Of a stretch of 24,046 nt of DNA, positions 1,005 to 22,810 are shown one piece after another (within the stretch, counting starts at the first letter, position 1; the number at the start of each line of letters is the position of its first letter). This DNA is from a virus (Duplodnaviria > Heunggongvirae > Uroviricota > Caudoviricetes). The DNA lies in IMG/VR virus record IMGVR_UViG_2617270979_000003, positions 1 through 24,046 of that record. One strand, 5' to 3'. The position numbers were made by a program, and so were the translations under genes. A model generated the notes under the pieces. That model was not told where the DNA came from and made no database searches. It was given only the letters and a program-made list of their open reading frames with translations.

Positions 1005-1580
1005 CTACGGCAGTGCTGGCCATTCAATATCCTGTGCAGTTGACGTATCAACACGGTTCAGCAATACCCGATACTTTTTCCATGCTTCCAGCAACGAGAT
1101 TTCTTCCTCCGTTGCAATTTCCAGATCTGCAGCATCCTGAAGCGGCGCAATATGCTCACTGGCTACCTGCATCAGGTTGTTTTTTGTTTCTTCCGCCTCC
1201 CGGATCCGGAACAGTTTTTCTGCTTCCGTATCCTTCACCCAGGCTGTGCCGTTCCACTTCTGAAACTCCCCTTCCGGCGATAACCAGGTAACATTTTTCG
1301 GTAACGGACCGAGTTCAGAAATAAATAACGCGTCGCCGGAAGCCACGTCATAAACCGTTTTACCCCGATGATCTTCAACGAGATGCCACGATGCCTCATC
1401 ACTGTTGAAAACAGCCACAAAGCCAGCAGGAATATCTGGTGGTGCACTATCGGTACTGTTTGCTGGCAGACCTGTATGAGGCGGAATATATGCGTCACCT
1501 TCACCAATAAATTCATTAGTTCCGGCCAGCAGATTATAAATTTTTATGGTCCGTGGTTGTTCACTCATTCTGAATGCCAT
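1005..1580 (-). CDS. tfaR: Tail fibre assembly chaperone (Tfa family)
   Basis: 191-aa ORF immediately downstream of the tail fibre gene on the same strand, start overlapping its stop; sequence resembles lambdoid Tfa proteins as I recall them. Confidence 0.8.
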
Positions 1581-3484: not shown

Positions 3485-3779
3485 CCCCTTTCCAGTCTTT
3501 CAGCAGATAACGAGCGGCATTATCAATGAGTAAATCATCAACAGAATCCACCTCGGAAACCTTTGAAATATCAAACTCCTTCGTTCCGACGTGCAAACTG
3601 GCATCCATTTTCTCAATGTGGCGACGGATTAATGCATTACGGGAGCGATACTGATCGTTATCGCTGCTTGCCACCTACAGTTTTAACCCGTCTACAGGTT
3701 TTAAGTCCTTCATTGGCGTAAACCAGCGTTCTCCACCAATGATAATTTTCTGATTAAGAATAAACATCCATAACCTCAT
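3444..3779 (-). pseudogene. Amber-interrupted ORF remnant upstream of the tail fibre gene (34 codons, in-frame TAG, 76 codons), overlapping the stf start in another frame
   Basis: Hand translation of the minus strand: ATG at 3779, in-frame TAG at 3677..3675, then GTG and 76 more codons to 3444. The 3' end overlaps the 5' end of the 634-aa stf ORF. Confidence 0.3.
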
Positions 3780-3969
3780 TCAATGCGTCCCCCTGTAGGG
3801 CAGTACCACAGGAGGAATAACGGAAAATCAACTAATCGCCTCAGCACTGGCTTTTGCGATCACGGCAGCCAGTGCTACTGGGGGCGGAGGTGTTGCTGGT
3901 AAAGTTAGGTATTGGATCAATGAGTGAGTCAACATAATATTAAACTCACAATTATAAATCAGCCATATA

Positions 3970-5427
3970 TTAGGAGCGCCAAAAAAAACCTGAAAACAAT
4001 ATAATAACAGGATAAATTTCAAGGCGACCAAGAATCATAGCTATGCACATTAAATATTTTGCAATGTCATTAAGCACTCCGAATGACGATGCAGTAGCCC
4101 CAAAACCTAATCCCATATTATTAATACATGCAGCCACTGTTGCAAATGATGTAAGAAAATCATATCCCATACCATTTAACACCAGTATAAAAAACACCGT
4201 GAAGAGAGTATAAAGAAAAAAGAAACTCCATACAGACCTCATTACACGATCTGTAACTATCTTCCCTCCTACATTTACACTCAACAACGCTCTGGGATGA
4301 GAAAGCTGATTTATCTCGTGTTTGCTTTGTTTGAAAAGTATAAGAAATCGAAGTGACTTAATTCCACCACAAGTTGAACCTATACATCCCCCAAAGAAAC
4401 TTGACAACAGCAAAAACACTATCGTGTGCGTGGGCCAACTTGCATAATCCTGCGTAGCTAAACCATTATCAGTGAGCATGGAGCTGGCAAGAAAAAACGA
4501 ATGAATAAAACTTCCATGCAAGTCATACATACCTATATGCCAGACCTGGAAAGAGGTAACAATGATCACCCCTAAGGCTATTAACAGAAAGAAACGAAGT
4601 TCAATATCTCTGATTAAAGGTTTTATCGTTTTCCTGCTAATAACAATATACCAAAGAGTGAAGTTGAAAGCCGATAGCAGGGAAAAAGAACCAGCCACCA
4701 GCTCAACCAAATAGTTATTAAAATATCCGATACTCTCGCTATGAGTTGAGAAACCACCAAGCGAAACTGTGGAAATCCCGTGACAAATAGCATGAAACAA
4801 AGGCATTCCTGCAAGTCTATAACAGACAATACAAGCAATACCTAATAAAGAATAAGTTATCCACAGTGTCCGTGACGTATCGGCCAGGCGGGGAGTGAGT
4901 TTGTCATCCTTAAATGGCCCCGGCATTTCTGACTGATAAAGCTTTGCACCACCAATACCCAATAATGGCAATACAGCAACCGCCAGAACAATAACTCCTA
5001 AACCACCTATAAAATTTAACTGTGACCGATAGTACAAATATGCCCGAGGTAATGAACTAACATCATCAATTACAGTTGCTCCTGTTGTTGTTATTCCAGA
5101 AACCCCTTCAAACAGAGCATCAATGAACGTTAAATTAAGTTCTGAGTCAATCCATAAAGGGAATGCACTAATAACAGAAAACAAAATCCAAAACATTACA
5201 ATTATAATAAACCCATCACGGGTACGTAATTGAATGCCAGATTTCTTAGTTGTATACCACGCTCCGCCACCAATGCAAAAAAATATAACGAAAGTTATAA
5301 AGAAAACAAACAGGCTTTTTTCTTTATAAAACAATGCTACAACCATTGGTGGCAACATTGAAAGACTATAGAGCCAAACTAGGAACCCACACATATGAGT
5401 AACAACTCTTACATGAGATGTATTCAT
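3970..5427 (-). CDS. trkG: Trk-system K+ uptake membrane protein TrkG
   Basis: Polytopic membrane protein; the ORF from its 7th codon (MNTSHVRVVTHMCGF...) gives 485 aa, the length I recall for TrkG; visibly A+T-rich compared with flanking phage genes; same position after Rz as in Rac. Confidence 0.85.
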   Translation of the reverse strand: MNTSHVRVVTHMCGFLVWLYSLSMLPPMVVALFYKEKSLFVFFITFVIFFCIGGGAWYTTKKSGIQLRTRDGFIIIVMFWILFSVISAFPLWIDSELNLTFIDALFEGVSGITTTGATVIDDVSSLPRAYLYYRSQLNFIGGLGVIVLAVAVLPLLGIGGAKLYQSEMPGPFKDDKLTPRLADTSRTLWITYSLLGIACIVCYRLAGMPLFHAICHGISTVSLGGFSTHSESIGYFNNYLVELVAGSFSLLSAFNFTLWYIVISRKTIKPLIRDIELRFFLLIALGVIIVTSFQVWHIGMYDLHGSFIHSFFLASSMLTDNGLATQDYASWPTHTIVFLLLSSFFGGCIGSTCGGIKSLRFLILFKQSKHEINQLSHPRALLSVNVGGKIVTDRVMRSVWSFFFLYTLFTVFFILVLNGMGYDFLTSFATVAACINNMGLGFGATASSFGVLNDIAKYLMCIAMILGRLEIYPVIILFSGFFWRS

Positions 5428-5564
5428 ATCTAAATATTCTTTCAATTATAACCACCTTGCTGCAATATTATGATTATACTGTATAAAATTTAACTCCTCT
5501 TAGATCTTACTTCACTGTTCCTTATGAAACAATCATCAAAATGAATCATATTGTAGTTAAGATT

Positions 5565-6029
5565 TTACTTTAAACACTGCTCGGTTATGTATTGCTGAGC
5601 ACCTTCAAGTTGGGCCTGCATCATTACCAGTCGTTCCCGGAGGGTGAAATAATCCCGTTCAGCGGTGTCTGCCAGTCGGGGGGAGGCTGCATTATCCACG
5701 CCGGAGGCGGTGGTGGCTTCACGCACTGACTGACAGACTGCTTTGATGTGCAACCGACGACGACCAGCGGCAACATCATCACGCAGAGCATCATTTTCAG
5801 CTTTCGCATCAGCTAACTCCTTCGTGTATTTTGCATCGAGCGCAGCAACATCACGCTGACGCATCTGCATGTCAGTAATTGCCGCGTTCGCCAGCTTCAG
5901 TTCTCTGGCATTTTTGTCGCGCTGGGCTTTGTAGGTAATGGCGTTATCACGGTAATGATTAACAGCCCATGACAGGCAGACGATGATGCAGATAACCAGA
6001 GCGGAGATAATCGCGGTTACTCTGTTCAT
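5565..6029 (-). CDS. Spanin inner-membrane subunit (Rz)
   Basis: N-terminal TM segment ([20 protein letters not shown]) followed by charged coiled-coil-like sequence; start MNRVT overlaps the endolysin stop as ATGA; position after the endolysin. Confidence 0.8.
5624..5809 (-). CDS. Spanin outer-membrane lipoprotein subunit (Rz1), embedded in Rz in another frame
   Basis: 61-aa ORF wholly inside Rz; lipoprotein signal ending at a Cys (LPLVVVGC), proline-rich mature part ([15 protein letters not shown]). Confidence 0.7.
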
Positions 6030-6523
6030 TGCTGACCCCACAAACAGATTTCACGCTCAATCTCACGACGAGTCATGAGACCTTTCCATTGCTTACCGCC
6101 AGCATATGTCCAGCGACGTAGCTGATCACATGCGCCTTTGATATCGCCCTGGTTTATTTTGCGAAGAAGCGTCGATGTTCTGAAATTGCCAGCACCCACG
6201 TTGTAAACGAATGAGTAAAGAGCGCCGCGCGTTGTTTCCGGTATATCGACTTTGATGTACGGGTTAATTTGTCTGGCGACAGTGGCAAGGTCTTTATTCA
6301 AGAGTGTTTTGCATTCTGCTTTGGTATACGTTTTACCGAGCATGATGTCTTTTCCTGTATGCCCGTGACATACAGTCCATACACCAACAATATCTTTGTA
6401 TGGTATGTAGCTGACACCTTCCAGACCATCGTTACCACTTGGGCCAGTGATTAACACTGATGCTATAGCAATTGCTCCGCCACCAATAGCAGCAGCAACG
6501 ACTTTTCGTAATGATGGAGGCAT
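6026..6523 (-). CDS. SAR endolysin (phage lysozyme, phage-21 R type)
   Basis: 165-aa ORF; N-terminal Gly/Ala-rich weakly hydrophobic signal-anchor-release segment ([18 protein letters not shown]) followed by the lysozyme catalytic region ([24 protein letters not shown]). Confidence 0.9.
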
Positions 6524-6738
6524 TATTCACCTCTCGCAGCCTTGCGCTTATCTTCTTTAATCTTGAAATAAAGGTTTGTCAGGTACGTCAGCAGGCCAAA
6601 TACCAGACTACCCAGCACACCGATTGCAGCCCACTGTGACGGAGTTACTCTATCGAGCAACTGTAAAAACCAGTAGCCAGCACTGCCTGCGGAGGTGCCG
6701 TAGGCAATGCCTGTTGAAATTTTGTCCATGGATTTCAT
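6523..6738 (-). CDS. Pinholin (S21-like) with dual-start motif MKSMDK
   Basis: 71-aa product from [26 protein letters not shown]... with two TM segments and a charged C-terminus; closely resembles phage 21 S as I recall it. The ORF-track Met lies further upstream and is unlikely to be used. Confidence 0.85.
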
Positions 6739-6989
6739 AGCCTCACCTCCGCACGGAACGGATGGCATAGTTATTATGTGTAGGCTTTCAGACACATCAA
6801 TCAGAGCCTTAATTGATATATATGCTGGAGACGATGCAATATAAAAAGCTCGCCGTAGCGAGCTAATAAAATGTATTTCTCTGATATTATGTTTATTTGT
6901 ATTAGCTCAGACTTGACATCACAGGTTTCGTATATAGAACATCATCAAATCTGTCAGTTTGCTATGAATGAGATATAGTAATTGAAGAG

Positions 6990-7385
6990 CTAACCTCGCA
7001 TGTCAAAGCCAGATTTCTGAAAATCTCTGTAGACTTCCGGATTGTTGAAGGCCGGAAATTTGGCTTTATGAGCTGCGGACTTTATCGCTTCGCAATAGGC
7101 TTTATCACCGTTACTGGTAGATATTTTTAACGCCGTGCCATCCTGAGAGAATTCCATATGCAACCTGCATTTTTTCCCTTTCCAGTTATGCGGCTCATCA
7201 AGTTTGGCATTAATTACAGCTCTGATTCCCCGCGCTTGCGCCCCCCATTCATCCTGATCATCCCAGCGTCCTGAACTGCAACTACCTGTAGCAGTAGTTT
7301 TGTGGCAATCTGAAGGGTGTAAAGGTGTGCATCCCGCAACAAAACCGACCCAAAAAGTCAACATAACGATTTTCTTTAATCCCAC
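6990..7385 (-). CDS. Lipoprotein with TolA C-terminal (domain III)-like domain, paralog 2
   Basis: Signal peptide with lipobox (FVAGC); C-terminal region (KKCRLHMEFSQDGTALKIS...GDKAYCEAIKSAAHKAKFPAFNNPEVYRDFQKSGFDMRG) is a diverged copy of the domain found in the neighbouring paralog. Confidence 0.65.
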   Translation of the reverse strand: MGLKKIVMLTFWVGFVAGCTPLHPSDCHKTTATGSCSSGRWDDQDEWGAQARGIRAVINAKLDEPHNWKGKKCRLHMEFSQDGTALKISTSNGDKAYCEAIKSAAHKAKFPAFNNPEVYRDFQKSGFDMRG

Positions 7386-7535
7386 TTCTTGCTCCTCAAT
7401 CCATTAAAATCTCAGCAATAGTAGTTGTTACGTCCGCCACTGGCTCAGAGCTGACTATCCGCTAAATTTAGCTCAGTGCCGTAGCTGTGTCAGAACAAAC
7501 CTAAGCCGAAACCGTTTATTACAAAACAATAAATA

Positions 7536-7964
7536 TCAGGGTTTAAAATCCAGCACCCCATTTTGAAATACTTTATATACTTCCGGCGAAGGGGGGGCAG
7601 GTATATCAGCATTCTTTATCGCATTCATCGCTTCACGACATAAATCGAGGTCTCCACTTTCTCTTTTAACCTCCAGTAGAAGGCCATTCGGGGCCATATG
7701 CATTCTCAGTGTACACTCTTTTCCTGAATACTTACTCGCATCCCCGAACTGTTTTTCGATGGCGCTCTTGATTTGATGGGCATACAGACGGATATCCTCA
7801 CTAACATCAGAAGTACGTTCAGATGAACTCACATACTGTGTCTCTATTGCTTTATCGGGGTAATATGATGTACGGTCATGATAATTTGTCGATACAGCAT
7901 CAGTGCACCCGATAATAATCCCACTAATAATCAACGTAAGAATTGATGCGCTACGAAAACCCAT
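7536..7964 (-). CDS. Lipoprotein with TolA C-terminal (domain III)-like domain, paralog 1
   Basis: Signal peptide with lipobox (IIGC); C-terminal HQIKSAIEKQFGDASKYSGKECTLRMHMAPNGLLLEVKRESGDLDLCREAMNAIKNADIPAPPSPEVYKVFQNGVLDFKP matches my recollection of the E. coli TolA C-terminus (..QIKSAIE..F.DAS.Y.GK.CTLR...AP.G.LL....GD..LC......IP.PPS..VY.VF.N..LDFKP). Confidence 0.75.
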   Translation of the reverse strand: MGFRSASILTLIISGIIIGCTDAVSTNYHDRTSYYPDKAIETQYVSSSERTSDVSEDIRLYAHQIKSAIEKQFGDASKYSGKECTLRMHMAPNGLLLEVKRESGDLDLCREAMNAIKNADIPAPPSPEVYKVFQNGVLDFKP

Positions 7965-8552
7965 TTTTCTTCACATATGTCATATAGTAAAGGATTATAT
8001 ATACCGTTGTTTTGGACGCTCAAACAGCGAATCAGATCAAATAAAACGCACATTTGTTAACATTTACACAAAGTCTGCGCGGGATATTCTGAAAGAATAT
8101 CCATAATGTGGAGAGAATCTATTGAAGTGCATGGTGCCGGGTGCCTCCCGGTGAACAAAATGTTCGTGATACCTGTCGGCGATAGAAAAGGTTAATGGTA
8201 TCACCCCACCGCACAGGGGGATTCACCATGCAGGAGTTTTCTTAGCAAACTCACTGCGCGCCCGGCAACTCCCAACCACATAAAATGCGGAGTTTGTGGC
8301 ATTTATGCATATAACTCGCAGGAATTATCTTAAAAAACTGATGTCGATCCGGATTAAAAAGAAGCAGGTCATCATCAGATGACTGGAAAAAAGGAAAACA
8401 AAAAATACTCATCATACAGTTTTGATTGCAGGGATGAGCCTGCTATGCACAATATGCAGAATATAAGCAAGATAAAAATATGCAGGCATATTATTTCGGA
8501 TTTTGTTATTAACACAACCTTTTTAATAATCATTTGGCATACAATAAACCAG

Positions 8553-8581
8553 CCCAAAAAGAACCGCCTAAACAGGCGGTT
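8553..8581 (-). terminator. Candidate intrinsic terminator on the minus strand (7-bp G+C stem, U-rich tail)
   Basis: AACCGCC / GGCGGTT stem with a 6-nt loop; on the minus strand it is followed by CTTTTTG. Confidence 0.35.
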
Positions 8582-8901
8582 GGTCAATACAAAGGATGCT
8601 TCGTCTTTATTATAGTAATCTGAGGCGTCGGGTGTCTTGTATCAGACAACATATTGTCCCGCTAAACAGCGAATTACAAACCACCCTGCAATGATCTCTC
8701 ATCTCATTTTATATGAGTTGACGACATCAGGATAACGCATCATCAGCCCCTGCCAAGAAATATCAAAACTCCCGCCAGCAATGTGTTATCACAATATTGT
8801 AAAAAAAACACAGCACCGAAACTATAACTGGTCTCTGTTATAATTTGGAGCAGAAAGACCAGTTGCCCAACTAGCAGCATTCTCCCCTGCTTTCCTGACG
8901 T

Positions 8902-8928
8902 AAAAAAACCGCATTAAGCGGTTTTTTT
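8902..8928. terminator. Bidirectional hairpin flanked by A7 and T7 runs; candidate tR'-like terminator downstream of the Q-like gene
   Basis: AAAAAAACCGC-ATTAA-GCGGTTTTTTT; lies about 100 bp downstream of the Q-like gene stop on the late-gene strand. Confidence 0.5.
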
Positions 8929-9008
8929 ACGATGTCCATGTCTGCAATCCGCCTCGCGATACAGCTTTGCGAAGCATAGCAAAATTGAAGCAGTTTATAC
9001 GTAAGAAA

Positions 9009-9464
9009 TCAAGCCATTTTATCAGCAAATGATTCACGCATGGGAATATATAGGGCATACTCAGCAACAGCTAACCAATTAGCAATCCGTTTTTCGCATG
9101 TGCTAAAACACCACTCTGGGTGTGCATCATTTAGCAATTCAGCCATTTTGCGCTTAGTCATCCCCCGCCCTTCATAGCGTTGCCGGAGAATGCAAATCAA
9201 TCCTGGATGCTCTGCCAGCACCTCACTTATGACTCGATCAATACATAACGCCTCTGCATCAGTACAATGCGCCAGCCAGCTCTTTTGCTTGCCGTTGATC
9301 ATCTCTCGCAAAAACGCTTCCAGCTCAGCTTTCTCTATTCCCGCTTTTTTCATTCTGCGCAGGGCTTCATTGATGGCTGTTTTCGTCAATTTTTTGGATG
9401 CCAACAACTGATTGAACATATTTCCTGACCTGCCACCGCCAATATACGACCAGCGCCCCCACAT
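9009..9464 (-). CDS. Putative late-gene antiterminator (Q-like); start uncertain
   Basis: Last ORF before a terminator hairpin and the lysis region; has a WGRW motif near the chosen start and several Cys pairs, reminiscent of Q-family proteins. The ORF-track start (9671) would overlap the upstream gene by over 120 nt, so an internal Met is preferred. Confidence 0.5.
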   Translation of the reverse strand: MWGRWSYIGGGRSGNMFNQLLASKKLTKTAINEALRRMKKAGIEKAELEAFLREMINGKQKSWLAHCTDAEALCIDRVISEVLAEHPGLICILRQRYEGRGMTKRKMAELLNDAHPEWCFSTCEKRIANWLAVAEYALYIPMRESFADKMA

Positions 9465-9547
9465 ACGCAGTTTGCCCTGAATCCAGACACTTTCCAGCGT
9501 TGCGAGACGAAGGTGTTCTCCGCTTTTTCCTGTATTCGTTGGGTAAA

Positions 9548-9838
9548 TCACAAATATCCCTCCTTTCTCCAGATTTCTTGTGTGCGAAAAACACCTTCTG
9601 CATGCATCAGGCGTAATTCTTCTTTGGTGTAATCGCTGGTTTTTACCCGCCCGTCGATTAGATCGTGGCATGAGCTACAGGCAATCGCCGCCTGCATATC
9701 GTGTGGTTTTGTCGCTGTTCCGCACGTTCCCGCCAGTCGGTAATGCGCCAGCACAGACGTTTCCGGATCGTGATTGCAGTAGCCAGGAATTCTGACGGCG
9801 CACATCTGCCCCCGCGCCGCTTTACGTAAATCCACCAT
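9548..9838 (-). CDS. Nin-region Cys-rich protein (YbcO-like, putative nuclease)
   Basis: 96-aa ORF with Cys clusters (CAVRIPGYCNH...CGT...ACSSCHD); resembles the DLP12 YbcO protein as I recall it; lies in the nin region upstream of Q. Confidence 0.55.
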   Translation of the reverse strand: MVDLRKAARGQMCAVRIPGYCNHDPETSVLAHYRLAGTCGTATKPHDMQAAIACSSCHDLIDGRVKTSDYTKEELRLMHAEGVFRTQEIWRKEGYL

Positions 9839-10437
9839 TACGCAAACTCCAGCAGCTGCGCGGCCACATTTTCGACTTGTTCCGGAGAGGAAAATTTACG
9901 GAACAGAATCCAGTTCCACAGCACATTCAGAACAGATTTATAAACCTGCTGAAACTCGACTTCGTCCATATTCGCAAAAGCGATGGATTTCGCCCGACGC
10001 CCATGGCTACCGTCCGGATAAAAATGTTCGGTGTAAAATCCAGCCTGAATGGTTACCCACTCGCGAAAAGCCTCAAACGACTTTAACAATGCCGTATCCC
10101 GGGTTCTGCGTGTCGCAACTGTATTCAGATATTGCTCTGCGGCATCACTCAGGGCTGGCGTGTGTTCCCGACCAACTGATTCGCACAGGTAATCAACGAA
10201 ACCAGACAGCAGTTTTCGTTCGCGAGGCGTGATCGCCCCACCGACCGGAGTCCAGTAATCAAATCCCAGTTGCAGGAGTTTGAAAAAACGCTTGTGGAAT
10301 GCGTAGTTACGCACACGCTTAAAGTCTGCGTGTATCCACTCGCCTATTTTGATTTGATGCAGAAAATCACAACTCTCCGGCGTCGCCGGGAGAAGTAATC
10401 CGGAAGAGGTTTGTTTGACCAGTTGTATATGCGCCAT
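9838..10437 (-). CDS. Conserved lambdoid nin-region protein of unknown function
   Basis: 199-aa ORF with ordinary codon usage, 1-nt overlap with the downstream gene; no motif I can name with confidence. Confidence 0.55.
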   Translation of the reverse strand: MAHIQLVKQTSSGLLLPATPESCDFLHQIKIGEWIHADFKRVRNYAFHKRFFKLLQLGFDYWTPVGGAITPRERKLLSGFVDYLCESVGREHTPALSDAAEQYLNTVATRRTRDTALLKSFEAFREWVTIQAGFYTEHFYPDGSHGRRAKSIAFANMDEVEFQQVYKSVLNVLWNWILFRKFSSPEQVENVAAQLLEFA

Positions 10438-10710
10438 TTCTCAATCTCTCGATGGCGCAGCGCAGCAGATGCCAGTTGTTCAGGCTGACGTATGAAGTAT
10501 AAATAAACTGGCTCCAGTGTAAAGCCCCCACCTTAATAGAATAAAAACCAAACAACAGATTGCTGGGATACAAACAACGCTTATTATTAAAAGCGGTTAA
10601 ACAAATTAAATTTTAATGTTATGCAAATTTGTCAGATCACCATAATATCTCATTTGAAAACCGCTGAAATAACAACCCTATCAGGATTAATCATATTAAG
10701 GTGAGTAAAT

Positions 10711-10797
10711 ATGGAAAACAACAAATCTGCACATTACGTTCCTTTTTTATCTGTAATACTTTTTGTTTTATGCTGTGCGTGGGCATTATTTTTATAA
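10711..10797 (+). CDS. Candidate small hydrophobic peptide (28 aa, MENNKSAHYVPFLSVILFVLCCAWALFL)
   Basis: ATG preceded by AAGGTGA at 7-nt spacing; single hydrophobic helix; below the ORF-track cutoff; convergent with hok. Confidence 0.3.
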   Translation: MENNKSAHYVPFLSVILFVLCCAWALFL

Positions 10798-10865
10798 AAA
10801 TATTTACAGATGAAATAAACCCGCCAATCAGGTTAACTGTGGCTGCGTTGAGGATGCATAATACA

Positions 10866-11114
10866 TCAGAGGTTGCGGGGATTTCTCCCCGCTGGTCCTC
10901 TTACTCCCCAAGTTCGTAAGCTGTGAAGACAGCGACCTCCGTCTGGTCGGTTCGGATTCGTACCTCGCAGAGGTCTTTCCTCGTTACCAGTACCGTCACT
11001 ATAACGGTTAAACAGATGACGATCAGGGTGATTAACATCGCCTTTTGCTGCTTCATAACCTGCTTCTCCTTGACCTTTTGGTCGGTAAGAGGCTAATCTA
11101 CGTATGCAAAGCAT
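10866..11114 (-). CDS. mok: Mok-like overlapping reading frame (translational coupler for hok)
   Basis: 82-codon ORF in another frame that starts 58 nt upstream of the hok ATG, spans hok and ends beyond its stop; GAGG 8 nt upstream of its ATG. Confidence 0.45.
   Translation of the reverse strand: MLCIRRLASYRPKGQGEAGYEAAKGDVNHPDRHLFNRYSDGTGNEERPLRGTNPNRPDGGRCLHSLRTWGVRGPAGRNPRNL
10901..11056 (-). CDS. hok: Hok/Gef-family type I toxin (51 aa)
   Basis: Hand translation of the minus strand gives MKQQKAMLITLIVICLTVIVTVLVTRKDLCEVRIRTDQTEVAVFTAYELGE, nearly identical to HokD/RelF as I recall it; absent from the ORF track because it is under 60 aa. Confidence 0.85.
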   Translation of the reverse strand: MKQQKAMLITLIVICLTVIVTVLVTRKDLCEVRIRTDQTEVAVFTAYELGE

Positions 11115-11170
11115 AGATGTGGCCTCAGATTAATGTTAAGCGTCTTGCCGGACGCGTAATGTTAACTGGG
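11106..11170 (+). ncRNA. sok: Predicted Sok-like antisense RNA (approximate boundaries)
   Basis: Plus-strand TTGACC (11070..11075), 18-bp spacer, TAATCT (11094..11099) would start a transcript complementary to the mok SD and start codon; 3' end not defined. Confidence 0.3.
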
Positions 11171-11481
11171 GCTTTTCTCTATCTGCCTTTGGTGTTCATG
11201 CCCGAGGCAGACAGCCTCAAGCACCCGCAGCAATTCTACTTAACTATCCTTTTCCCGCAAATCGTTTTATCCTCAACGCAAATTTCACCAGTCCCCCCAA
11301 CTCGTGTCCCTTACCCTAAGGCTGTTTCCCTCTTTACACAGAAGATAATTAATGTATTATTTTTTACAAACAATCAATTAAGAGCTATCTGTGGGTGGAG
11401 TCGACTTGCGGTAGCTTTTTCTTTTATGCATTGCACACATTCATGCTCTAATATATTCCTATATGTTCAAAAGGACTTTTC

Positions 11482-12414
11482 ATGCACAGCGTTAACTTCT
11501 ATTCATTCCGTGTGTTAACCCACAAGGGCAGCCGAACCAGCAAAAGACTAAACAACCTAGGTTTAAGCGATAAAAAAACAGCATATGAATTATTTGTTGA
11601 GTATTTTAATAGCTATAAAAACACACCTATTGAATTTGGTCTCTCGAAAACAAAGGTTTCTCTTGAACAACACACATCACTCACCTTTGATGCTCAAAAC
11701 CAAGTAATATATGGATATGTAAAGGTTGGGAAATATGGTGAGAGCAGTGAAATAAAAGACGATAAACTTACTAAAATACGTTATACAACAACTATCAACG
11801 ATGTAACTCTCAAACAGCGTTACATTTTAATATTTTTGCCAGACAATTTAGAAGAAGGGATTATAGCATTTCACGCTAATGACAATATTTCTGCTCGCAG
11901 CACACTCTCTGATGCATTACTAGACCACTTGAAAACAAAATATAAACTTGAAGCGAGAATCAATCCTCTTTGCCACAAAAAAATCCCCCAACACATCCTT
12001 GATTCAGAATTAAAACAAATAAAAGCCCAAGGTTACAAAGCACCAAAGGACATCACGGATTCATTCGGAAATAACAAAACAAACATCAAAACCGATTTGG
12101 TAATAAAAGCAAATCAAGGCGTATTTGGTAGTTTTAAAGACTTAAAAGACAAAAAACTAGGAAATATAATAGAAATAATTGAAGATAAGTGTGACGCAAT
12201 AAAAGTTAGTTTACAATTAGGCAATAGAACAGTCATTTTTAATTACGACACCATCTTAAGAAAAGGAATTTCTGCCGAATTAGATGATAACGACTTAAAC
12301 ATAAACGCATCTACAGGAATCCCCGATCTTAAAGCACTTCATGACACTGTTAAAATCATTGCGAATGATATACTAAGTGAGTTACATAGTGGTAATGGGG
12401 GATTAAAAATATGA
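11482..12414 (+). CDS. Hypothetical soluble protein (310 aa), first gene of an A+T-rich two-gene cassette
   Basis: Long ORF with AAGGA 6 nt upstream of the ATG; K/N/I/D-rich composition; no predicted TM segment; no catalytic motif I recognise. Confidence 0.7.
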   Translation: MHSVNFYSFRVLTHKGSRTSKRLNNLGLSDKKTAYELFVEYFNSYKNTPIEFGLSKTKVSLEQHTSLTFDAQNQVIYGYVKVGKYGESSEIKDDKLTKIRYTTTINDVTLKQRYILIFLPDNLEEGIIAFHANDNISARSTLSDALLDHLKTKYKLEARINPLCHKKIPQHILDSELKQIKAQGYKAPKDITDSFGNNKTNIKTDLVIKANQGVFGSFKDLKDKKLGNIIEIIEDKCDAIKVSLQLGNRTVIFNYDTILRKGISAELDDNDLNINASTGIPDLKALHDTVKIIANDILSELHSGNGGLKI

Positions 12415-12965
12415 ACAAGATTAACGTAATGAGTGTAATAAAAAAACATTACACAACAATGTCGGATCAACGCGGAAATATTTTACTCGAAGACATCGCA
12501 ATACACTTCATTATTCCTCTTACATTATCATTAATCATATGTTTTACCTATGGGATAATGAAAACCTCTATCGCATCTGTTTTTGTTAACTTTGGAGCAA
12601 TTACTACCGCACTGTTAATGAGCGCGGTTATTATGATCTACGATCAAAAACAAAAAACTGTATTTAAAATTTCAGACATTGAGGAAAACAACAAACCACG
12701 TTCAAATCTAATAATTTTAAATAATAATAAAACCGTATATGAGCAATTATGTCACAATGTTTCTTATGCTATATTAACATCTGTAGCGTTAGTTATTTTT
12801 TCGGTTGCAATATATTTTCTCCCAGAAACCCCAAGTGAATTAAAAAAATGGTATTTCGCAACCCCTGCTTACATAATCAGTTATTTAGCATACTCATCCT
12901 TCTTTTTTACCGTAGTAACATTCTTGATGGTTATAAAAAGATTTAGCACAATATTAGATAGTTAA
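12411..12965 (+). CDS. Hypothetical four-helix membrane protein (184 aa), second gene of the cassette
   Basis: Start overlaps the upstream stop (ATGA at 12411..12414); four hydrophobic segments at about residues 28-50, 55-77, 117-137 and 150-176. Confidence 0.7.
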   Translation: MNKINVMSVIKKHYTTMSDQRGNILLEDIAIHFIIPLTLSLIICFTYGIMKTSIASVFVNFGAITTALLMSAVIMIYDQKQKTVFKISDIEENNKPRSNLIILNNNKTVYEQLCHNVSYAILTSVALVIFSVAIYFLPETPSELKKWYFATPAYIISYLAYSSFFFTVVTFLMVIKRFSTILDS

Positions 12966-12976
12966 ACAATGAAACC

Positions 12977-13005
12977 ACCGCCCTTTCGGGCGGTTTCCTG
13001 ATTTT
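12977..13005 (+). terminator. Intrinsic terminator after the two-gene cassette
   Basis: ACCGCCC-TTTC-GGGCGGT stem-loop followed by TTCCTGATTTT, 12 nt after the stop codon. Confidence 0.6.
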
Positions 13006-13171
13006 ATGAGGGTGCAGAAATACCTCCGGCTAAGGATTAAATTTTATTTACAGTGCTAACTTAATTATTCATGCGTGCGAAGTTGTTCCGCGCAAAGATC
13101 GTTAAATGCGCCCGCCCGAACTTCAGCAAGTAAAGCATTGACAGCGACTACCCACGGATAGTTAATCTTGT

Positions 13172-13609
13172 TCACCACACAACCTCCTGAATATTTCCAT
13201 GGTAGAACGCGAGTACACGCTGCATAACTTCTCTCTTCAGGCACTCGCGACAGATTATGTTCAGACGCCTGTCGTAACGGCGTATTTCTCCGTCTGGTAA
13301 TGACCAGATAAGGTCAGGATCAACCACAACCGGTTTCTTCACCTTTGCCCTTGATAGTTTTTTGCGGGCGTTTTGCCAGTCTTTACGCGCCTGCTCAGAC
13401 GGGAATAATCCGTAGCCTGAATTGTAAACATCACCACTGGCGACCAGTTCTCTGGCGAGAGTGCTTATGTAATACCTTGATGCACCGGTTTTAGCCTCCA
13501 GAGCCCGTAACGTCTCGCGACCGCTCAGACGTACAAGTTCAACAACCTGCCCTTTAATTTTTTCCCGCTCTTCTGGTGTAAATACTTTTGCCATAGGTGC
13601 CTCCGGCAA
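13172..13609 (-). CDS. Hypothetical DNA-binding protein (HTH-like segment, C-terminal CxxC)
   Basis: 145-aa ORF; segment LRALEAKTGASRYYISTLARELVASG looks like a helix-turn-helix; CRECL near the C-terminus; start abuts the upstream gene stop. Confidence 0.5.
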   Translation of the reverse strand: MPEAPMAKVFTPEEREKIKGQVVELVRLSGRETLRALEAKTGASRYYISTLARELVASGDVYNSGYGLFPSEQARKDWQNARKKLSRAKVKKPVVVDPDLIWSLPDGEIRRYDRRLNIICRECLKREVMQRVLAFYHGNIQEVVW

Positions 13610-14026
13610 TCACTTTTCCGATGCAACATGGCGGGAAGAATCAGTAATCTGTCGTACAATATCCCTGTGCTTGTTCAGCTCCCGCAGCGCGGCGCAGACA
13701 CGCTCCCACTTCTGGACATGATTTTTCGCCCGACGCAGTTCGCGGTTTGCCATATGCAGTGATGGTAAAACCAGGTCATCCGCTCGCGTTTCAGTAAACG
13801 ATGGCAGCGACTGCACAATGTCCGCCACAGTTTCTGTTTTAATATCTTCCTGTGTTGCAGCCTCCTGTACTGGTAACGCAACACCTGCGGGCTGAGGAAA
13901 GGCCTTACCAGCAGTTTCCGCTACCGATGCTGCTTTCGGCTCTGCTGGTAAATTATCGCCCGGTATGCAGTAACGAAATTTACCGCCCTGATTTACGCGA
14001 AGCAGACGACCTTTGCTGATTGCCAT
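13610..14026 (-). CDS. Hypothetical protein in the replication region; start uncertain
   Basis: The 190-codon ORF overlaps the 3' end of the ydaU-like gene by about 200 nt in another frame; an internal Met (MAISKG...) reduces the overlap to 47 nt. Confidence 0.4.
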
Positions 14027-14876
14027 TGCCAGCGTTGAAGCCACTTTGCGTGATGTGGTACCAAACAATGTACCCCCTGAAGCCTGGCGGGATCGCACTA
14101 TCCGGTAACGAGACGGTGTTAACCTGTCGGAGTAACGTCTCAGGTCGAACACCTTTCGGCGCGAACAAGCCCTGGTATTCATTGGCGATGCTGTGTCGAA
14201 TCACCTGCTCAGGTGAAAAACCCTGCTGGCGGAATTTTTCCAGCTCCCGTATCGCCCCGTTAGCGCCCTGCTCCGTTCGAATCGGTTTTCGCAATGCCTG
14301 GCGAAATTCAACCCACTCACGCCAAAGCGAGACAGAAATCCAGTTCGGCAAAGTAATATCCAGAGGGTCAAACTTTTTGACACCTCGATTCCCCCGGGGG
14401 GGATTTAGGGGGGGATCTGTTTTTAGATCTTTATCTGTATCTTTATTAGTTGCCTTTGTGTTGACATCATGTTCAAACACCACTTCAACATCTGTTTGAA
14501 CACCTGTTAAATTTCTCTCTTGTTTTGTTTGAACATCTGCTTCCTTTCTGCTTCTTCTGGCCTGAACAGATGCTTTTCCTGCGGCTGATTTTTTGGTTAA
14601 TTTTTCCCTGACTGATGCCAGATCTTCCTCAATCCGAAGATGCACCCATTCCTCGCCGTTATCGCAAAAAAACTCCTGCAAGGATGGTTCAACATCAGCC
14701 CATCGCTCGTTAGTCAGACGGGCAATTTTTGCCAGCCTGTTTTTAGGTATTGGCTTTCCTGTTTGCCAGTAATTGAACATCAGCAACAAATACGCACCAT
14801 GCTCCTCTGCTGACAAATGCATGGTGTCAGCCAGGTAATCAGCTATGTACAGTTGCATGTATGGTAATGCGGCCAT
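13980..14876 (-). CDS. ydaU: YdaU-like (DUF1376-type) putative replication initiation protein
   Basis: N-terminus [37 protein letters not shown]; position downstream of ydaS-ydaT as in Rac; contains two G7 homopolymer tracts. Confidence 0.7.
14391..14414. repeat. Homopolymer cluster C5G7 ... G7 inside the ydaU-like gene
   Basis: Read directly: CCCCCGGGGGGG ATTTA GGGGGGG. Confidence 0.9.
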
Positions 14877-14939
14877 AATTGCCCCGTATGATGCTGCCCG
14901 GTGGCTTAGAATAAGCACAAACAGCATGGAAACTTTTGC

Positions 14940-15362
14940 TTAATGAACAATGACAGAATCGTCGGAAGAACCGCCGCCGCTGAAATGCGCTTTCCGGTAA
15001 ACGGCTTGGACTGCATCATCATGCGCATCAATTGCCGTACTTAACGCTTCCTGCGCCGCCAGTAATGCACGGCGTTCCAGGGTATCGAAGATGCAGAGTC
15101 GGTGACGCAGCTCGCGCGGAAGGATTGCCAGAATTGCTGGGATCAGCTTCTGAATTTTTTCTCTTTGCGTTTTCGTTTCACCTTTCAACCAACGGTGATA
15201 GATATTCTGCTGATTGTTCCAGTCCTTGCCTGGAACCAGGGGCAATTCGCCGCCCCCCTGGCGCAGATATTCTTCAGTAATTGCATTGGCTACCCATGCC
15301 TGCCCTTTTTCGGCTGCTAGGGCAAACAACACTGATTCGATGTGCTCATGCTTGATTTTCAT
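14940..15362 (-). CDS. ydaT: YdaT (Rac immunity-region protein, toxic partner of YdaS)
   Basis: 140-aa ORF directly downstream of ydaS; length and N-terminus match my recollection of Rac YdaT. Confidence 0.85.
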   Translation of the reverse strand: MKIKHEHIESVLFALAAEKGQAWVANAITEEYLRQGGGELPLVPGKDWNNQQNIYHRWLKGETKTQREKIQKLIPAILAILPRELRHRLCIFDTLERRALLAAQEALSTAIDAHDDAVQAVYRKAHFSGGGSSDDSVIVH

Positions 15363-15384
15363 GAATCATTTGCCTCTTGATGTT

Positions 15385-15681
15385 TCAGGTATGATCAAAT
15401 GAGGATTTGTTACTGTCATTTAGTTGCTTCACTGACATATTCTGCGAACAACATGCCGAACGTCGTAAATATGACCAGTCAATATCAGGACGAAGTTCTT
15501 CGCACAGAACCTCACCTCTTGTTGCACGTTCAATTGCTGGACATCTCTCGGCAGGCAATTGACGTACCCCTTTGATCCATTGATTTACGCTTGGAGGTGA
15601 TACACCTAAAAGCCTAGCCATTGCTGATTGCCCACCGACAACAGCACAAGCTTGCTTGAATGAATAGTTCTCTTTTTTCAT
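15385..15681 (-). CDS. ydaS: YdaS (Cro-like HTH protein)
   Basis: 98-aa ORF divergent from racR, beginning MKKENYSFKQACAVVGGQSAMARLLGVSPPSVNQWIKG (HTH); GGAG 8 nt upstream of the ATG. Confidence 0.85.
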   Translation of the reverse strand: MKKENYSFKQACAVVGGQSAMARLLGVSPPSVNQWIKGVRQLPAERCPAIERATRGEVLCEELRPDIDWSYLRRSACCSQNMSVKQLNDSNKSSFDHT

Positions 15682-15708
15682 CGAATGAACTCCAAAAACA
15701 CACAGAAA

Positions 15709-15753
15709 ATATTAGGCGACGCCTAACGCAATTGTCAATAGGCTGTGCCTAAT
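15709..15753 (-). promoter_or_regulatory. ydaS promoter (-35 TTGACA, -10 TAATAT) overlapped by operator palindromes TTAGGCG-A-CGCCTAA and TAGGC-TGT-GCCTA
   Basis: Minus strand: TTGACA (15738..15733), 18-bp spacer, TAATAT (15714..15709); perfect 7-bp-arm palindrome at 15712..15726 within spacer/-10; second palindrome at 15737..15749 overlapping the -35. Confidence 0.5.
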
Positions 15754-15805
15754 GCAGTAAGGGTAGGGATTGACTAATGTAATGCGCATAGGAGAATATT
15801 AAGCA

Positions 15806-16282
15806 ATGCTTAGTGGTAAAAACTTAGGCCGAGCGATAGAGCAGGCCATTAACAAAAAAATCGCATCGGGATCCGTCAAATCAAAGGCGGAGGTCGCACG
15901 CCACTTTAAAGTCCAACCACCATCAATTTATGACTGGATTAAGAAAGGCTCTATAAGTAAAGATAAACTTCCAGAATTATGGCGTTTCTTTTCTGATGTT
16001 GTTGGTCCAGAGCATTGGGGGCTTAACGAATACCCCATACCAACCCCCACCAATTCAGATACAAAAAGTGAACTTTTAGATATAAACAACCTTTATCAAG
16101 CAGCCTCTGATGAAATAAGAGCGATTGTAGCTTTCCTGTTATCTGGAAATGCTACAGAACCAGATTGGGTTGACCACGATGTTCGCGCCTACATAGCAGC
16201 GATGGAAATGAAAGTGGGTAAGTATCTGAAAGCTCTTGAATCTGAACGGAAAAGCCAGAACATCACAAAAACTGGAACTTAA
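15806..16282 (+). CDS. racR: RacR prophage repressor
   Basis: 158-aa ORF divergent from ydaS, with an HTH-like N-terminal region; length and context match Rac RacR. Confidence 0.85.
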   Translation: MLSGKNLGRAIEQAINKKIASGSVKSKAEVARHFKVQPPSIYDWIKKGSISKDKLPELWRFFSDVVGPEHWGLNEYPIPTPTNSDTKSELLDINNLYQAASDEIRAIVAFLLSGNATEPDWVDHDVRAYIAAMEMKVGKYLKALESERKSQNITKTGT

Positions 16283-16377
16283 ACTTATATGGTCTGACGG
16301 AAAACTCCTGGATTCCGTTATTTAACCCCCCCATCACTTTCTGCTGTCGCCATCACCTATTAGGTTACGCTCAAAAC

Positions 16378-16421
16378 ATTAGGCATAGCCTATTGACAAC
16401 CAATTAGGCATTACCTATAGT
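16378..16421 (+). promoter_or_regulatory. pL-like rightward promoter (-35 TTGACA, 17-bp spacer, -10 TATAGT) overlapped by operator palindromes; inverted copy of the ydaS promoter/operator element
   Basis: ATTAGGCATAGCCTATTGACAAC (16378..16400) is 21/23 identical to the reverse complement of 15731..15753; -35 at 16393..16398, -10 at 16416..16421; TAGGC-ATA-GCCTA palindrome at 16380..16392. Confidence 0.5.
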
Positions 16422-16590
16422 TCCAGCATGCCACCCACCCCGCCCCACAGAACGCCGGGCAATACTTCGAGTTACCAGGCAGTGGTAAGGGGTTAAGTAG
16501 CCAGCCCGAGGCGTATGAACATGACGGCGGGATTCAAATTTTGCAGTGCAGCAGTTAGTTCCGCCACCCGGCGTTAATGGGAGAGATAAG

Positions 16591-16725
16591 ATGGTGCATT
16601 ACGAAGTAGTTCAGTATTTGATGGATTGTTGCGGTATCACTTACAACCAGGCTGTGCAGGCTTTACGCAGCAACGACTGGGATCTCTGGCAGGCAGAAGT
16701 CGCTATACGTAGCAACAAGATGTGA
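16591..16725 (+). CDS. ydaG: Small protein YdaG-like (44 aa)
   Basis: Hand translation MVHYEVVQYLMDCCGITYNQAVQALRSNDWDLWQAEVAIRSNKM; GGGAGAG upstream; Rac has 44- and 51-aa genes between racR and sieB; symbol assignment from memory. Confidence 0.5.
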   Translation: MVHYEVVQYLMDCCGITYNQAVQALRSNDWDLWQAEVAIRSNKM

Positions 16726-16735
16726 GATTCGCAAA

Positions 16736-16891
16736 ATGCAAAAAATCGACCTCGGCAACAACGAATCCCTGGTGTGCGGCGTGTTCCCCAACCAGGATGG
16801 AACGTTCACTGCCATGACGTATACCAAAAGCAAAACATTTAAAACCGAAACTGGTGCGCGCCGATGGTTGGAGAAGCACACAGTAAGCTAA
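16736..16891 (+). CDS. ydaF: Small protein YdaF-like (51 aa)
   Basis: Hand translation MQKIDLGNNESLVCGVFPNQDGTFTAMTYTKSKTFKTETGARRWLEKHTVS; stop overlaps the convergent sieB stop. Confidence 0.5.
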   Translation: MQKIDLGNNESLVCGVFPNQDGTFTAMTYTKSKTFKTETGARRWLEKHTVS

Positions 16892-17376
16892 CGATTAAAA
16901 CGTCTACTCCTGCTGTTCCAGAATAACTTCATAAAATGGGAGTATTTTTCGGTGACGAGATAATAAGAACAGTTTGCGCTATCACTCTGATGTTGAATGA
17001 TGCCCTTCCGTTCTAATTTTTTCATAACCGGGTTACGGCAAGGAGAAGTGATAATAAGATTTCCTGTTTTAAGGAAATCTTTAAATACAGCGATTTCTTT
17101 CTCAGATAAACGAAGCAATACTCGTTGCTCTGGTAGTAATGAATAATGCTTTTGAATATGTGCTCGCAATCTTGAGAAGGAAATGGCGACCACGAAAGAA
17201 AAGGCAAAAACGATAATCTGAAAGAGCCAAGGTATTTCAGTATAAGCATTGAATGCGACAGTAAACTCTTTCGGTATCAGCCAGAGAGTGAGACCAAAAA
17301 TGATAATCGTATACATAAGTCTTTCGAGTGGCTCGTTAGCAAAAAGTTTCAACAATGGAGTAAATACATCCAACAT
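16888..17376 (-). CDS. sieB: Superinfection exclusion protein SieB
   Basis: From the internal Met (MLDVFTPLLKLF...) the product is 162 aa with two hydrophobic segments, matching Rac SieB length; the upstream extension in the ORF track is unlikely to be translated. Confidence 0.8.
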   Translation of the reverse strand: MLDVFTPLLKLFANEPLERLMYTIIIFGLTLWLIPKEFTVAFNAYTEIPWLFQIIVFAFSFVVAISFSRLRAHIQKHYSLLPEQRVLLRLSEKEIAVFKDFLKTGNLIITSPCRNPVMKKLERKGIIQHQSDSANCSYYLVTEKYSHFMKLFWNSRSRRFNR

Positions 17377-17594
17377 ATCAATAACTCTCAACTGTAAGGG
17401 TATTGAAATGTTAACACAAGCTCTCGCTGTAGGGGTATAGCCGAGACCACCGAAGCCCGGAGGTGGTGAAATAAAACCGGGCACAACACGAAGGCGCATT
17501 TCCGATATCCATAAAGAGTCGGTCTTGTCTGTTAAATTTAAATGGTGGGAGTGCGCCTCCGGTTGTAAATAACGACATTGCTGTGTGTAGTCCT

Positions 17595-17642
17595 GGCGGC
17601 ATCAGTTTTTTTCTTGAAGTTCGGCTGATGTCCGCCCTTTTT
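17595..17642 (+). terminator. Candidate plus-strand terminator-like hairpin upstream of kilR
   Basis: GGCGGCATCAG ... CTGATG(T)CCGCC: 11 bp with a 1-nt bulge and a 19-nt loop, followed by CTTTTTAAAG. Confidence 0.3.
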
Positions 17643-17817
17643 AAAGTGAATTTTGTGATGCGGTGAATGCGGCTAAGCGCACGTGGCACAGTTAAAAGTC
17701 ATGTTAGTCCTTATTGGTTTGGGTGGGAAAGCCGACTGTAATTGTTAACTGGTTGCAGTCACCTGGAGGCACCAGACACCGCATCAACAAAGTTCATTTG
17801 TAAAAATGGAGATAATT

Positions 17818-18039
17818 ATGATTGCACATCACTTCGGAACTGATGAAATACCACGTCAGTGTGTGACTCCTGGCGATTATGTTCTTCATGAAGGCCGGAC
17901 ATATATTGCCTCGGCAAACAATATTAAAAAGCGAAAACTATATATTCGTAACCTGACCACAAAAACATTCATTACTGACCGCATGATTAAAGTCTTCCTC
18001 GGTCGTGATGGTTTACCTGTAAAGGCGGAGTCATGGTGA
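17818..18039 (+). CDS. kilR: KilR, FtsZ-inhibiting killing protein
   Basis: 73-aa product [73 protein letters not shown] matches Rac KilR as I recall it. Confidence 0.85.
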
Positions 18040-18209
18040 TGACTAAGAAAATAAAATGTGCTTACCACCTTTGCAAAAAAGACGTTGAAGAAAGCAAAGC
18101 TATTGAAAGAATGCTTCACTTCATGCACGGGATTTTATCAAAAGACGAACCGAGAAAATATTGCAGTGAAGCTTGTACCGAAAAAGACCAGATGGCACAT
18201 GAACTTTAA
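18039..18209 (+). CDS. ydaE: YdaE-like small Cys-rich protein (56 aa)
   Basis: Hand translation [56 protein letters not shown]; start overlaps the kilR stop (TGATG). Confidence 0.7.
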   Translation: MTKKIKCAYHLCKKDVEESKAIERMLHFMHGILSKDEPRKYCSEACTEKDQMAHEL

Positions 18210-18283
18210 TTAATTGACTATTCGAAACTGAATTTATGCCAGAAATGGCAGGTATTCGCTCAACCTTAATTAAGGAGAAAAAC

Positions 18284-18559
18284 ATGATTACCAATTATGA
18301 AGCCACTGTTGTAACTACCGATGACATTGTTCACGAGGTGAATCTGGAAGGAAAGCGCATTGGCTACGTAATTAAAACAGAAAATAAAGAAACCCCATTC
18401 ACTGTGGTTGATATCGATGGTCCATCAGGCAACGTAAAAACACTTGATGAAGGTGTCAAAAAAATGTGCCTGGTGCATATCGGAAAGAATCTGCCCGCAG
18501 AAAAAAAAGCCGAATTTCTGGCAACTCTAATTGCAATGAAATTAAAAGGTGAAATCTGA
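18284..18559 (+). CDS. racC: RacC
   Basis: 91-aa product from MITNYEATVV... with AAGGAG upstream; position between ydaE and recE. Confidence 0.75.
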   Translation: MITNYEATVVTTDDIVHEVNLEGKRIGYVIKTENKETPFTVVDIDGPSGNVKTLDEGVKKMCLVHIGKNLPAEKKAEFLATLIAMKLKGEI

Positions 18560-18564
18560 AAGAA

Positions 18565-18589
18565 ATAGCCTGCGTATGGCGCAGGCTAT
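18565..18589. other. Perfect 10-bp stem hairpin (ATAGCCTGCG-TATGG-CGCAGGCTAT) between racC and recE
   Basis: Read directly; no U-tract on the plus strand. Confidence 0.6.
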
Positions 18590-18660
18590 GAACAGTGTGT
18601 ATCCGGCAAGATCATTCACTGAACAAAACGAATTTTAATCTGAGTTGAGGTTAAAAAACA

Positions 18661-22063: not shown

Positions 22064-22118
22064 TTCAGCCTGGCGGTGTAATGCACCGCCAACTTGAAAT
22101 ATTTTTATGAGAAAAATT

Positions 22119-22268: not shown

Positions 22269-22305
22269 AATAAACGAACCACTGGAAATAATAATGGAGG
22301 TGTTC

Positions 22306-22494: not shown

Positions 22495-22593
22495 ATTGCA
22501 TTGTATTCAAATTAAAACTTCATAGCTGATTATTAATAATCAACATCGGGCGTCAATTTAAGTCTAACATTGGCGCCTGCCAGAGGTGATGCG

Positions 22594-22809: not shown

Positions 22810-22810
22810 T

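Follow-up and report, generated by a model that had tools for sequence, protein, structure and literature searches.

A phage-21-type S/R/Rz/Rz1 lysis cassette with four uninterrupted reading frames in a Rac-family prophage

The lysis system of phage 21 combines a pinholin, a SAR endolysin and spanins, and in the reviewed mechanism the membrane is depolarised by small heptameric channels of S21-68 (PMC9636201). The deposited phage 21 genome (OL657228.1) carries annotations for the antiholin S21-71, the holin S21-68, the SAR endolysin, the i-spanin and the o-spanin. An intact cassette of the S21 type, essD-rrrD-rzpD-rzoD, is also present in the defective prophage DLP12 of E. coli K-12, where the lysis operon reportedly modulates the formation of outer membrane vesicles (OMVs) and is itself under stress regulation (PMC7918800). 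Among Rac-like prophages, KingRac has been described as inducible with mitomycin, lysing its host and forming particles (PMC6731689).

The DNA analysed here is a stretch of 24,046 nt from a virus of the class Caudoviricetes (IMG/VR record IMGVR_UViG_2617270979_000003), which we refer to as the window. Its membership in the Rac family is indicated by the presence of the gene set intR, xisR, ralR/RalA, recET, kilR, sieB, racR-ydaS-ydaT and trkG, and the RalA RNA itself was found in the window. The ORF listing revealed four uninterrupted reading frames on the minus strand of positions 5565-6738, corresponding to S, R, Rz and Rz1. The features of this region are as follows:

6523-6738, minus strand: S gene, class II pinholin, 71 aa, beginning MKSMDK (PF04971 'P21 holin S', 120.9 bits)
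6026-6523, minus strand: R gene, SAR endolysin with a GH24 lysozyme fold, 165 aa (PF00959 Phage_lysozyme, 154.8 bits)
5565-6029, minus strand: Rz gene, i-spanin, inner-membrane subunit, 154 aa (PF03245, 179.6 bits; phrog_13)
5624-5809, minus strand: Rz1 gene, o-spanin, outer-membrane lipoprotein, 61 aa (PF06085, 69.5 bits)
3970-5427, minus strand: trkG, Rac cargo gene directly downstream of Rz (RefSeq annotation of identical DNA)
6741-6765, minus strand: Shine-Dalgarno sequence GGAGG of S, part of which is paired by a preceding short hairpin, UCCG...CGGA (fold)

The preliminary description of this locus had claimed four intact frames, and all four were recovered, each with a strong Pfam match whose score is far over the family cut-off (26 bits in the case of S). 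Matches to PHROG families of holins, endolysins and spanins were also obtained, while no NCBIfam model matched S, Rz, Rz1 or the Q-like protein considered below. No further sizeable ORF and no Rfam family was detected on either strand within 5565-6738. The minus-strand orientation of the cassette is absent from the preliminary description. The four genes are translationally coupled, and a purine-rich ribosome-binding site precedes each of them. The 'ATGA junctions' described earlier hold for the R stop and Rz start, which overlap in this way (CAATGAAC), but not for the S stop and R start, which share one nucleotide in TAATG. Rz1 is nested inside Rz in the +1 frame, as had been reported. The assignment to the S21/R21 pinholin-SAR endolysin type was borne out by the identity of the proteins to those of phage 21, which amounts to 64/71 residues in S, 162/165 in R, 143/154 in Rz and 57/61 in Rz1, a range of 90-98%. 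We therefore consider it highly probable that the cassette is a standard phage-21-type S/R/Rz/Rz1 module of a Rac-family lambdoid prophage, which would operate by the phage 21 mechanism and be expressed late under the control of Q. Judged by their sequences, the four proteins look functional, and the neighbouring trkG anchors the cassette in the Rac context.

The S gene begins with M1-K2-S3-M4, identical to phage 21, so the reported dual-start arrangement is indeed retained. Initiation at Met1 is predicted to yield the 71-aa antiholin form, with an additional positive charge at the N-terminus, and initiation at Met4 (codon 6729-6727) the 68-aa holin form, encoded by 6523-6729. The first transmembrane domain (TMD1, residues 8-27) is weakly hydrophobic and SAR-like, with 60% G/A/S/T and a mean hydropathy of 0.39; TMD2 (residues 36-57) has a mean hydropathy of 1.44 and contains G40, S44 and G48, which we take to be the functionally important small-residue face of S21 TMD2. 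Nucleotide homology to phage 21 starts in the alignment ~40 nt upstream of the S start. The window and phage 21 have the same small hairpin over the S Shine-Dalgarno sequence, and it may be a start-choice element of the dual start, although it folds no better than shuffled sequences (z = -0.9).

The R protein matched the structures 3HDE (R21) and 4ZPU (RrrD) over residues 1-165 with E-values of about 1e-110, and 3HDF (R21) was matched as well. Residues E35, D44 and T50, the catalytic triad of the lysozyme fold, are all present; their numbering as Glu35-Asp44-Thr50 follows the structural work on R21. The N-terminal Gly/Ala-rich SAR segment (residues 8-27, 60% G/A/S/T) is the same as in R21 save for the substitution A8V. 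Thus, both the SAR segment and the catalytic region proved to be kept, as had been proposed, and the inactivating changes in catalytic residues that the preliminary description had named as a possible refutation were not found in the alignment.

In Rz, an N-terminal transmembrane segment with a hydropathy peak at residues 4-22 is accompanied by Cys99 and Cys152, the two conserved cysteines of the predicted periplasmic domain, and the C-terminus is identical to those of the K-12 Rac remnant and of the element vB_EcoS-683R6 (683R6). Rz1 has the lipobox VVGC with Cys20, an additional Cys29 and 10 prolines among its 41 mature residues, and the whole protein is identical to RzoR of K-12. At their C-termini, Rz and Rz1 are of a Rac-type variant, unlike those of phage 21.

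The sequences also bear on the selective history of the cassette. Between S and S21, 43 of the 216 nucleotides (20%) have changed but only seven residues, almost all of the changes being synonymous (dN/dS 0.03); across the compared alleles dN/dS ranged from 0.03 to 0.16 for S and, against three alleles, from 0.07 to 0.19 for R. Since the differences are mostly synonymous, S and R were under purifying selection while the lineages separated.

Because the proteins are near-identical to those of phage 21, we propose the S21/R21 mechanism for this cassette. Late transcription would give rise to the 68-aa pinholin and the 71-aa antiholin from the two starts, while the endolysin would be exported by Sec and remain anchored to the inner membrane through its SAR segment in an inactive state. 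At a set time the pinholin would form small channels and the membrane potential would collapse; the endolysin would then be freed, refold and cut the cell wall, after which the Rz/Rz1 spanin complex would disrupt the outer membrane. Expression would start from a late promoter past the Q-like gene and would require Q-dependent read-through of at least three hairpins and ~2.2 kb of cargo DNA.

Another important question is whether the region upstream of S provides the elements for such expression. The features identified there are the following:

9009-9551, minus strand: Q-like late antiterminator candidate, 180 aa, full length (DUF1133, 352.7 bits; phrog_753 'anti-termination protein Q-like', 264.5 bits)
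8947-9008, minus strand: conserved post-Q block, inferred late promoter/Q-binding region, with a candidate extended -10 element TGcTATGCT at 8981-8973
8899-8931, minus strand: strong hairpin, candidate tR', ~80 nt past the Q stop, whose 14-nt arms pair perfectly and are flanked by A/T runs
8562-8581, minus strand: second terminator-like hairpin (fold energy -13 kcal/mol, z = -1.4)
7536-7964 and 6990-7385, minus strand: paralogous pair of lipoprotein-like genes, each with a TolA C-terminal domain (PF06519, 82.6 and 53.6 bits, respectively)
6847-6864, minus strand: terminator-like hairpin with a T-run, past the TolA-like gene and 110 nt ahead of S (-13.0 kcal/mol, z = -4.3)

The full-length Q-like ORF and the terminator-like hairpins agree with the Q-like gene and terminators noted earlier. 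With respect to the characterised Q families (lambda, 21 or 82 type) the Q-like protein is borderline: it scored 25.5 bits against Pfam Phage_antitermQ, just below the cut-off of 26, and a PDB search with it returned no meaningful match, including to Q21 and Q-lambda. Neither a characterised nor a structurally solved relative was recovered from PDB or NCBIfam. The ~60 nt past its stop codon are the only intergenic sequence between Q and S that is common to elements with the same Q (683R6 and 673R7), and this block is also recognisable in Providencia and Klebsiella phages. Phage 21 has an annotated arrangement of the same kind, with Q21, pR'/QBE and a terminator, and by this analogy the late promoter is most likely placed at 9012-8947, just past the Q-like gene; a promoter scan of 8947-9012 found no consensus promoter, and neither the scan nor inspection by eye yielded clear -35 and -10 hexamers. 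The hairpin at 8899-8931 has a fold energy of -19.7 kcal/mol (z = -6.8), and analogous hairpins occur at the same place in 683R6, 673R7 and the Klebsiella and Providencia phages of this Q type, while only a weak hairpin follows the post-Q block in Rac-SA53. A promoter-like site at 8638-8609 (AAGACA-18-TATAAT) lies ahead of the hairpin at 8562-8581, an element that is partly kept in 683R6. This site and the terminator at 8581-8562 were considered as an alternative pR'/tR' pair and ranked second, as both are missing in 673R7, which has the same Q.

The TolA-like pair is cargo between the Q-like gene and S. Its members belong to phrog_5772, whose function is unknown, and RefSeq labels them TolA C-terminal domain-containing proteins; PADLOC returned nothing for them or for a two-gene island located between ydaU and Q. 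An STnc100-like RNA element is present between the post-Q region and S. No tRNA genes were found between the Q-like gene and S. In the deposited phage genome mEp460_ev081, S and the 1.5 kb upstream of it, a stretch that covers the TolA-like genes, show 97% identity to the window; the sequence of the hairpin at 6847-6864 occurs there as well. We take mEp460_ev081 to be an induced and propagated infant-gut phage, and this near-identity suggests that the arrangement is compatible with late-operon expression.

The relation to the Rac prophage of K-12 was established by alignment. Positions 14071-24046 of the window, from ydaU to intR, are 99.1% identical to K-12 Rac, and positions 3865-6009 are 99.4% identical to its trkG-rzoR-rzpR region; contigs that are nearly identical to the window have a ttcA-type gene (PF01171) next to intR. 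K-12 Rac lacks the sequence corresponding to 6010-13921 of the window. This gap removes R and S entirely and Rz in its first 20 nt, and with them the TolA-like pair, the Q-like gene, ybcO, a ninB-like gene and hok/sok. What remains in K-12 is a start-less Rz (the rzpR pseudogene) and rzoR, with the 5' end of ydaW joined out of frame to Rz. The decayed lysis region that the preliminary description had attributed to K-12 Rac was thereby substantiated.

The contrast with K-12 had been presented as if an intact cassette were unusual, and on this point the genome counts do not agree. At least 80% of the 5400-7000 region is present in 704 of 5,426 complete E. coli genomes, whereas the K-12 deletion junction is the minority state, being found in 338 of the 5,426, with K-12 laboratory strains included among the matches listed; genomes with the intact cassette are thus about twice as numerous as those with the K-12 deletion. 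Many RefSeq genomes contain DNA 100% identical to 5400-7000, annotated with essD, rrrD, rzpD (or 'lysis protein') and trkG, and in 762 genomes Rz-trkG is followed by terminase genes, as in long Rac-like prophages. Rac-like elements are mosaic, and other holin and endolysin genes are found in Rac-SA53 and 673R7. From the counts of 704 against 338 genomes it follows that the intact cassette is the usual state of the Rac family. An intact phage-21-type cassette in a Rac-family prophage is therefore already known, widespread and annotated, and it is the lysis region of K-12 Rac that represents a derived deletion from the complete module usual for E. coli.

These data raise a further question: would derepression of this heavily deleted prophage reach the lysis genes and lyse the host? 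We give this about an even chance. From the sequence, competence for lysis on induction is plausible but weaker than the preliminary description had implied. In favour of lysis on derepression are the intact proteins, the intact Q-like gene, the conserved post-Q module and the inducibility of KingRac. On the other hand, the early-to-late cascade may be broken, since ydaV and the virion genes are missing and a convergent island lies in the early operon. The homologous cassette of DLP12 shows that a defective prophage is able to express such a lysis module and that this can be of importance to the host (PMC7918800). For studies of RacR essentiality and Rac excision in non-K-12 strains, derepression could add true lysis to the known YdaT/KilR toxicity.

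The alternative that survives best is that the cassette is a silent relic, intact as a result of recent spread of the lineage and never expressed, with the chain from racR/ydaS through Q to the late promoter broken. An exact-protein look-up found the same architecture, with 99.98% identity over 20 kb, both in draft assemblies at NCBI and in scaffolds from human-gut metagenomes; the window is thus a natural variant, and copies so similar would have had little time for decay. The window prophage also lacks ydaV and has ydaU as a fusion ORF, and the two-gene island separating the early genes from Q is transcribed convergently to the early operon. Further downstream, Q is separated from S by three terminator-like hairpins, and the scan after Q yielded no consensus promoter. 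These features would all be expected of a silent cassette, but the Q-like gene encodes a full-length protein, the post-Q block with its terminator is kept as in the relatives, and the low dN/dS shows that the genes were under selection until recently. We consider silence a possible, though rather unlikely, explanation; if it were true, loss of RacR would kill via YdaT/KilR without true lysis.

A domesticated module is doubtful. Here the cassette would be expressed at a low, host-controlled level for cell-wall turnover, vesicles or biofilm lysis, as reported for DLP12, whose operon is close in sequence and has the OMV and stress connections mentioned above (PMC7918800). In the window, Q and the lysis genes survive although the virion genes are gone: between trkG/ynaK and the 3' part of stfR only a ydaY fragment is left, with no terminase, head or tail genes. 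A weak promoter-like site at 6800-6773, directly upstream of S, would also fit local expression. However, the homology to DLP12 ends 11 nt upstream of S, and most genomes with the cassette have terminase genes by trkG, so that it is usually a plain phage module. Moreover, neither of the two deletion junctions of the window occurs among the 5,426 complete E. coli genomes of RefSeq, which speaks against a long-selected architecture; the exact 40-nt stfR/ydaY deletion junction was likewise absent from the one-genome-per-species contigs. The related proposal that the Q-like gene, the two TolA-domain lipoproteins and the lysis cassette have been kept jointly by selection as a host-beneficial unit appears similarly improbable. 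If it were correct, the benefit could be altruistic lysis on derepression, or control of envelope turnover or vesiculation as proposed for DLP12.

Finally, it is very improbable that missense changes have abolished function in an outwardly intact cassette, the candidates being A8V (in the SAR segment) and A73T of R, which are absent from four comparison alleles, including phage 21, DLP12 and 683R6, or the combination of residues in S, whose exact allele occurs in no deposited phage genome (closest match 97.2%): the R changes are by sequence conservative and outside the catalytic triad and are common to many genomes with 100% identical DNA, all seven S residues differing from S21 recur in DLP12 EssD, mEp460_ev081 or 683R6, and many of the genomes that have long Rac-like prophages carry these same alleles in fixed form.

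The preferred reading, a standard phage-21-type module in a Rac-family prophage, can be set against the described systems as follows. Phage 21 has the same four genes in the same order, with the same nesting and dual start. In that phage, Q21, pR', the terminator and two tRNAs all lie within 370 nt of S, whereas the window has a Q of another type (DUF1133) 2.27 kb from S, with TolA-like cargo and no tRNAs in between.

The DLP12 cassette is close at the protein level: EssD has six of the seven residues by which the S of the window differs from S21, RrrD differs from R at three residues, and the RefSeq names of the window's lysis genes come from the DLP12 genes. However, DLP12 is another prophage with another Q (quuD) and has nmpC upstream, and the regions beyond the end of homology upstream of S are unrelated to those of the window. 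As the homology stops there, DLP12 regulation should not be assumed for the cassette described here.

Within the Rac family, the K-12 MG1655 remnant ydaW'-rzpR-rzoR-trkG shares its Rz1 protein and its neighbour trkG with the window. The full-length Rac-like prophage of E. coli EC2 (NZ_CP058571) is identical over 5400-7000 and has the same order of Q, TolA-like genes, S-R-Rz and trkG. Full-length Rac-like prophages have terminase, capsid and tail genes past trkG, which the window lacks. KingRac is likened to the window as Rac-like on the basis of its published description. The element 683R6 was considered as an isolated phage and rejected as such: the only paper naming it finds phages within the genome sequences of clinical isolates, and it therefore provides no evidence of function.

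The S105/S107-R-Rz-Rz1 cassette of phage lambda follows the same operon logic, with a dual-start holin and closely related Rz and Rz1. Lambda S, however, is a canonical holin with three transmembrane domains that forms large holes, whereas the S of the window is a pinholin with two; and lambda R is a cytoplasmic transglycosylase, whereas the R of the window is a predicted Sec-exported SAR lysozyme.

The following features lie between the Q-like gene (a DUF1133 late antiterminator candidate) and the pinholin gene S, or elsewhere in this Rac-family prophage.

8947-9012, minus strand: conserved block of ~60 nt immediately 3' of the Q-like gene
8899-8931, minus strand: intrinsic-terminator hairpin after this post-Q block
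6990-7385 and 7536-7964, minus strand: paralogous, lipoprotein-like TolA C-terminal domain genes (131 and 142 aa)
8075-8261, minus strand: STnc100 sRNA match (Rfam, 85.6 bits vs a gathering score of 47)
11482-12965, plus strand: two-gene island encoding a 310-aa soluble protein and, overlapping it, a 184-aa multi-pass membrane protein
10901-11056 and 11051-11226, minus strand: hok/sok-type toxin-antisense RNA module, comprising a Hok-like ORF of 51 aa and an Rfam sok match (103.9 bits)
1039-1237, minus strand: IS009 RNA family match (Rfam, 220.9 bits)

Conservation of the post-Q block extends from E. coli Rac-like elements to Providencia and Klebsiella phages, and in the elements that carry it an intrinsic-terminator hairpin comes next, the Rac-like prophage Rac-SA53 having only a weak one. 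The block and the hairpin probably represent the late promoter, the Q-binding site and tR', the terminator overridden by Q, of an uncharacterised Q family.

The pair of TolA-domain genes, which is also present in the deposited phage genome mEp460_ev081, lies downstream of the Q-like gene and upstream of S. In lambdoid phages, this position is a site of cargo, such as stx. Both proteins belong to the PHROG family phrog_5772, to which no function is assigned; they could serve as decoys against TolA-binding colicins or filamentous phages. The STnc100 match is located in the same intergenic region and includes a short motif, GGAGGCACCCGGCACC; a similar motif was found upstream of the second terminator-like hairpin (8581-8562), and another in 683R6. 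The IS009 match falls within the tfaR/pinR end.

The two-gene island is oriented convergently to the prophage early operon. Searches of Pfam, PADLOC and NCBIfam gave no match for either protein. Over at least 80% of its length, the island was detected in only 36 of the 5,426 complete E. coli genomes, in every one of which its genes are labelled hypothetical. It may constitute an uncharacterised defence or exclusion pair.

Is the arrangement of this Rac copy particular to it? At ~3445 and 3669-3865, the 3' part of stfR is joined to a ydaY fragment, followed by a tail-tube fragment and then trkG, and at ~14071 ydaV has been lost and ydaU and ydaW are fused. None of these deletion junctions was found among the 5,426 complete RefSeq E. 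coli genomes; the same prophage, with 99.98% identity, is present in the draft assemblies GCA_000704825.1 and GCA_047837585.1 and in gut metagenomes. The deletions of K-12 Rac are different. The hok/sok module, situated in the nin-equivalent region, is shared with Rac-SA53 but is missing from K-12 Rac because it falls within the 7.9-kb deletion of the latter.
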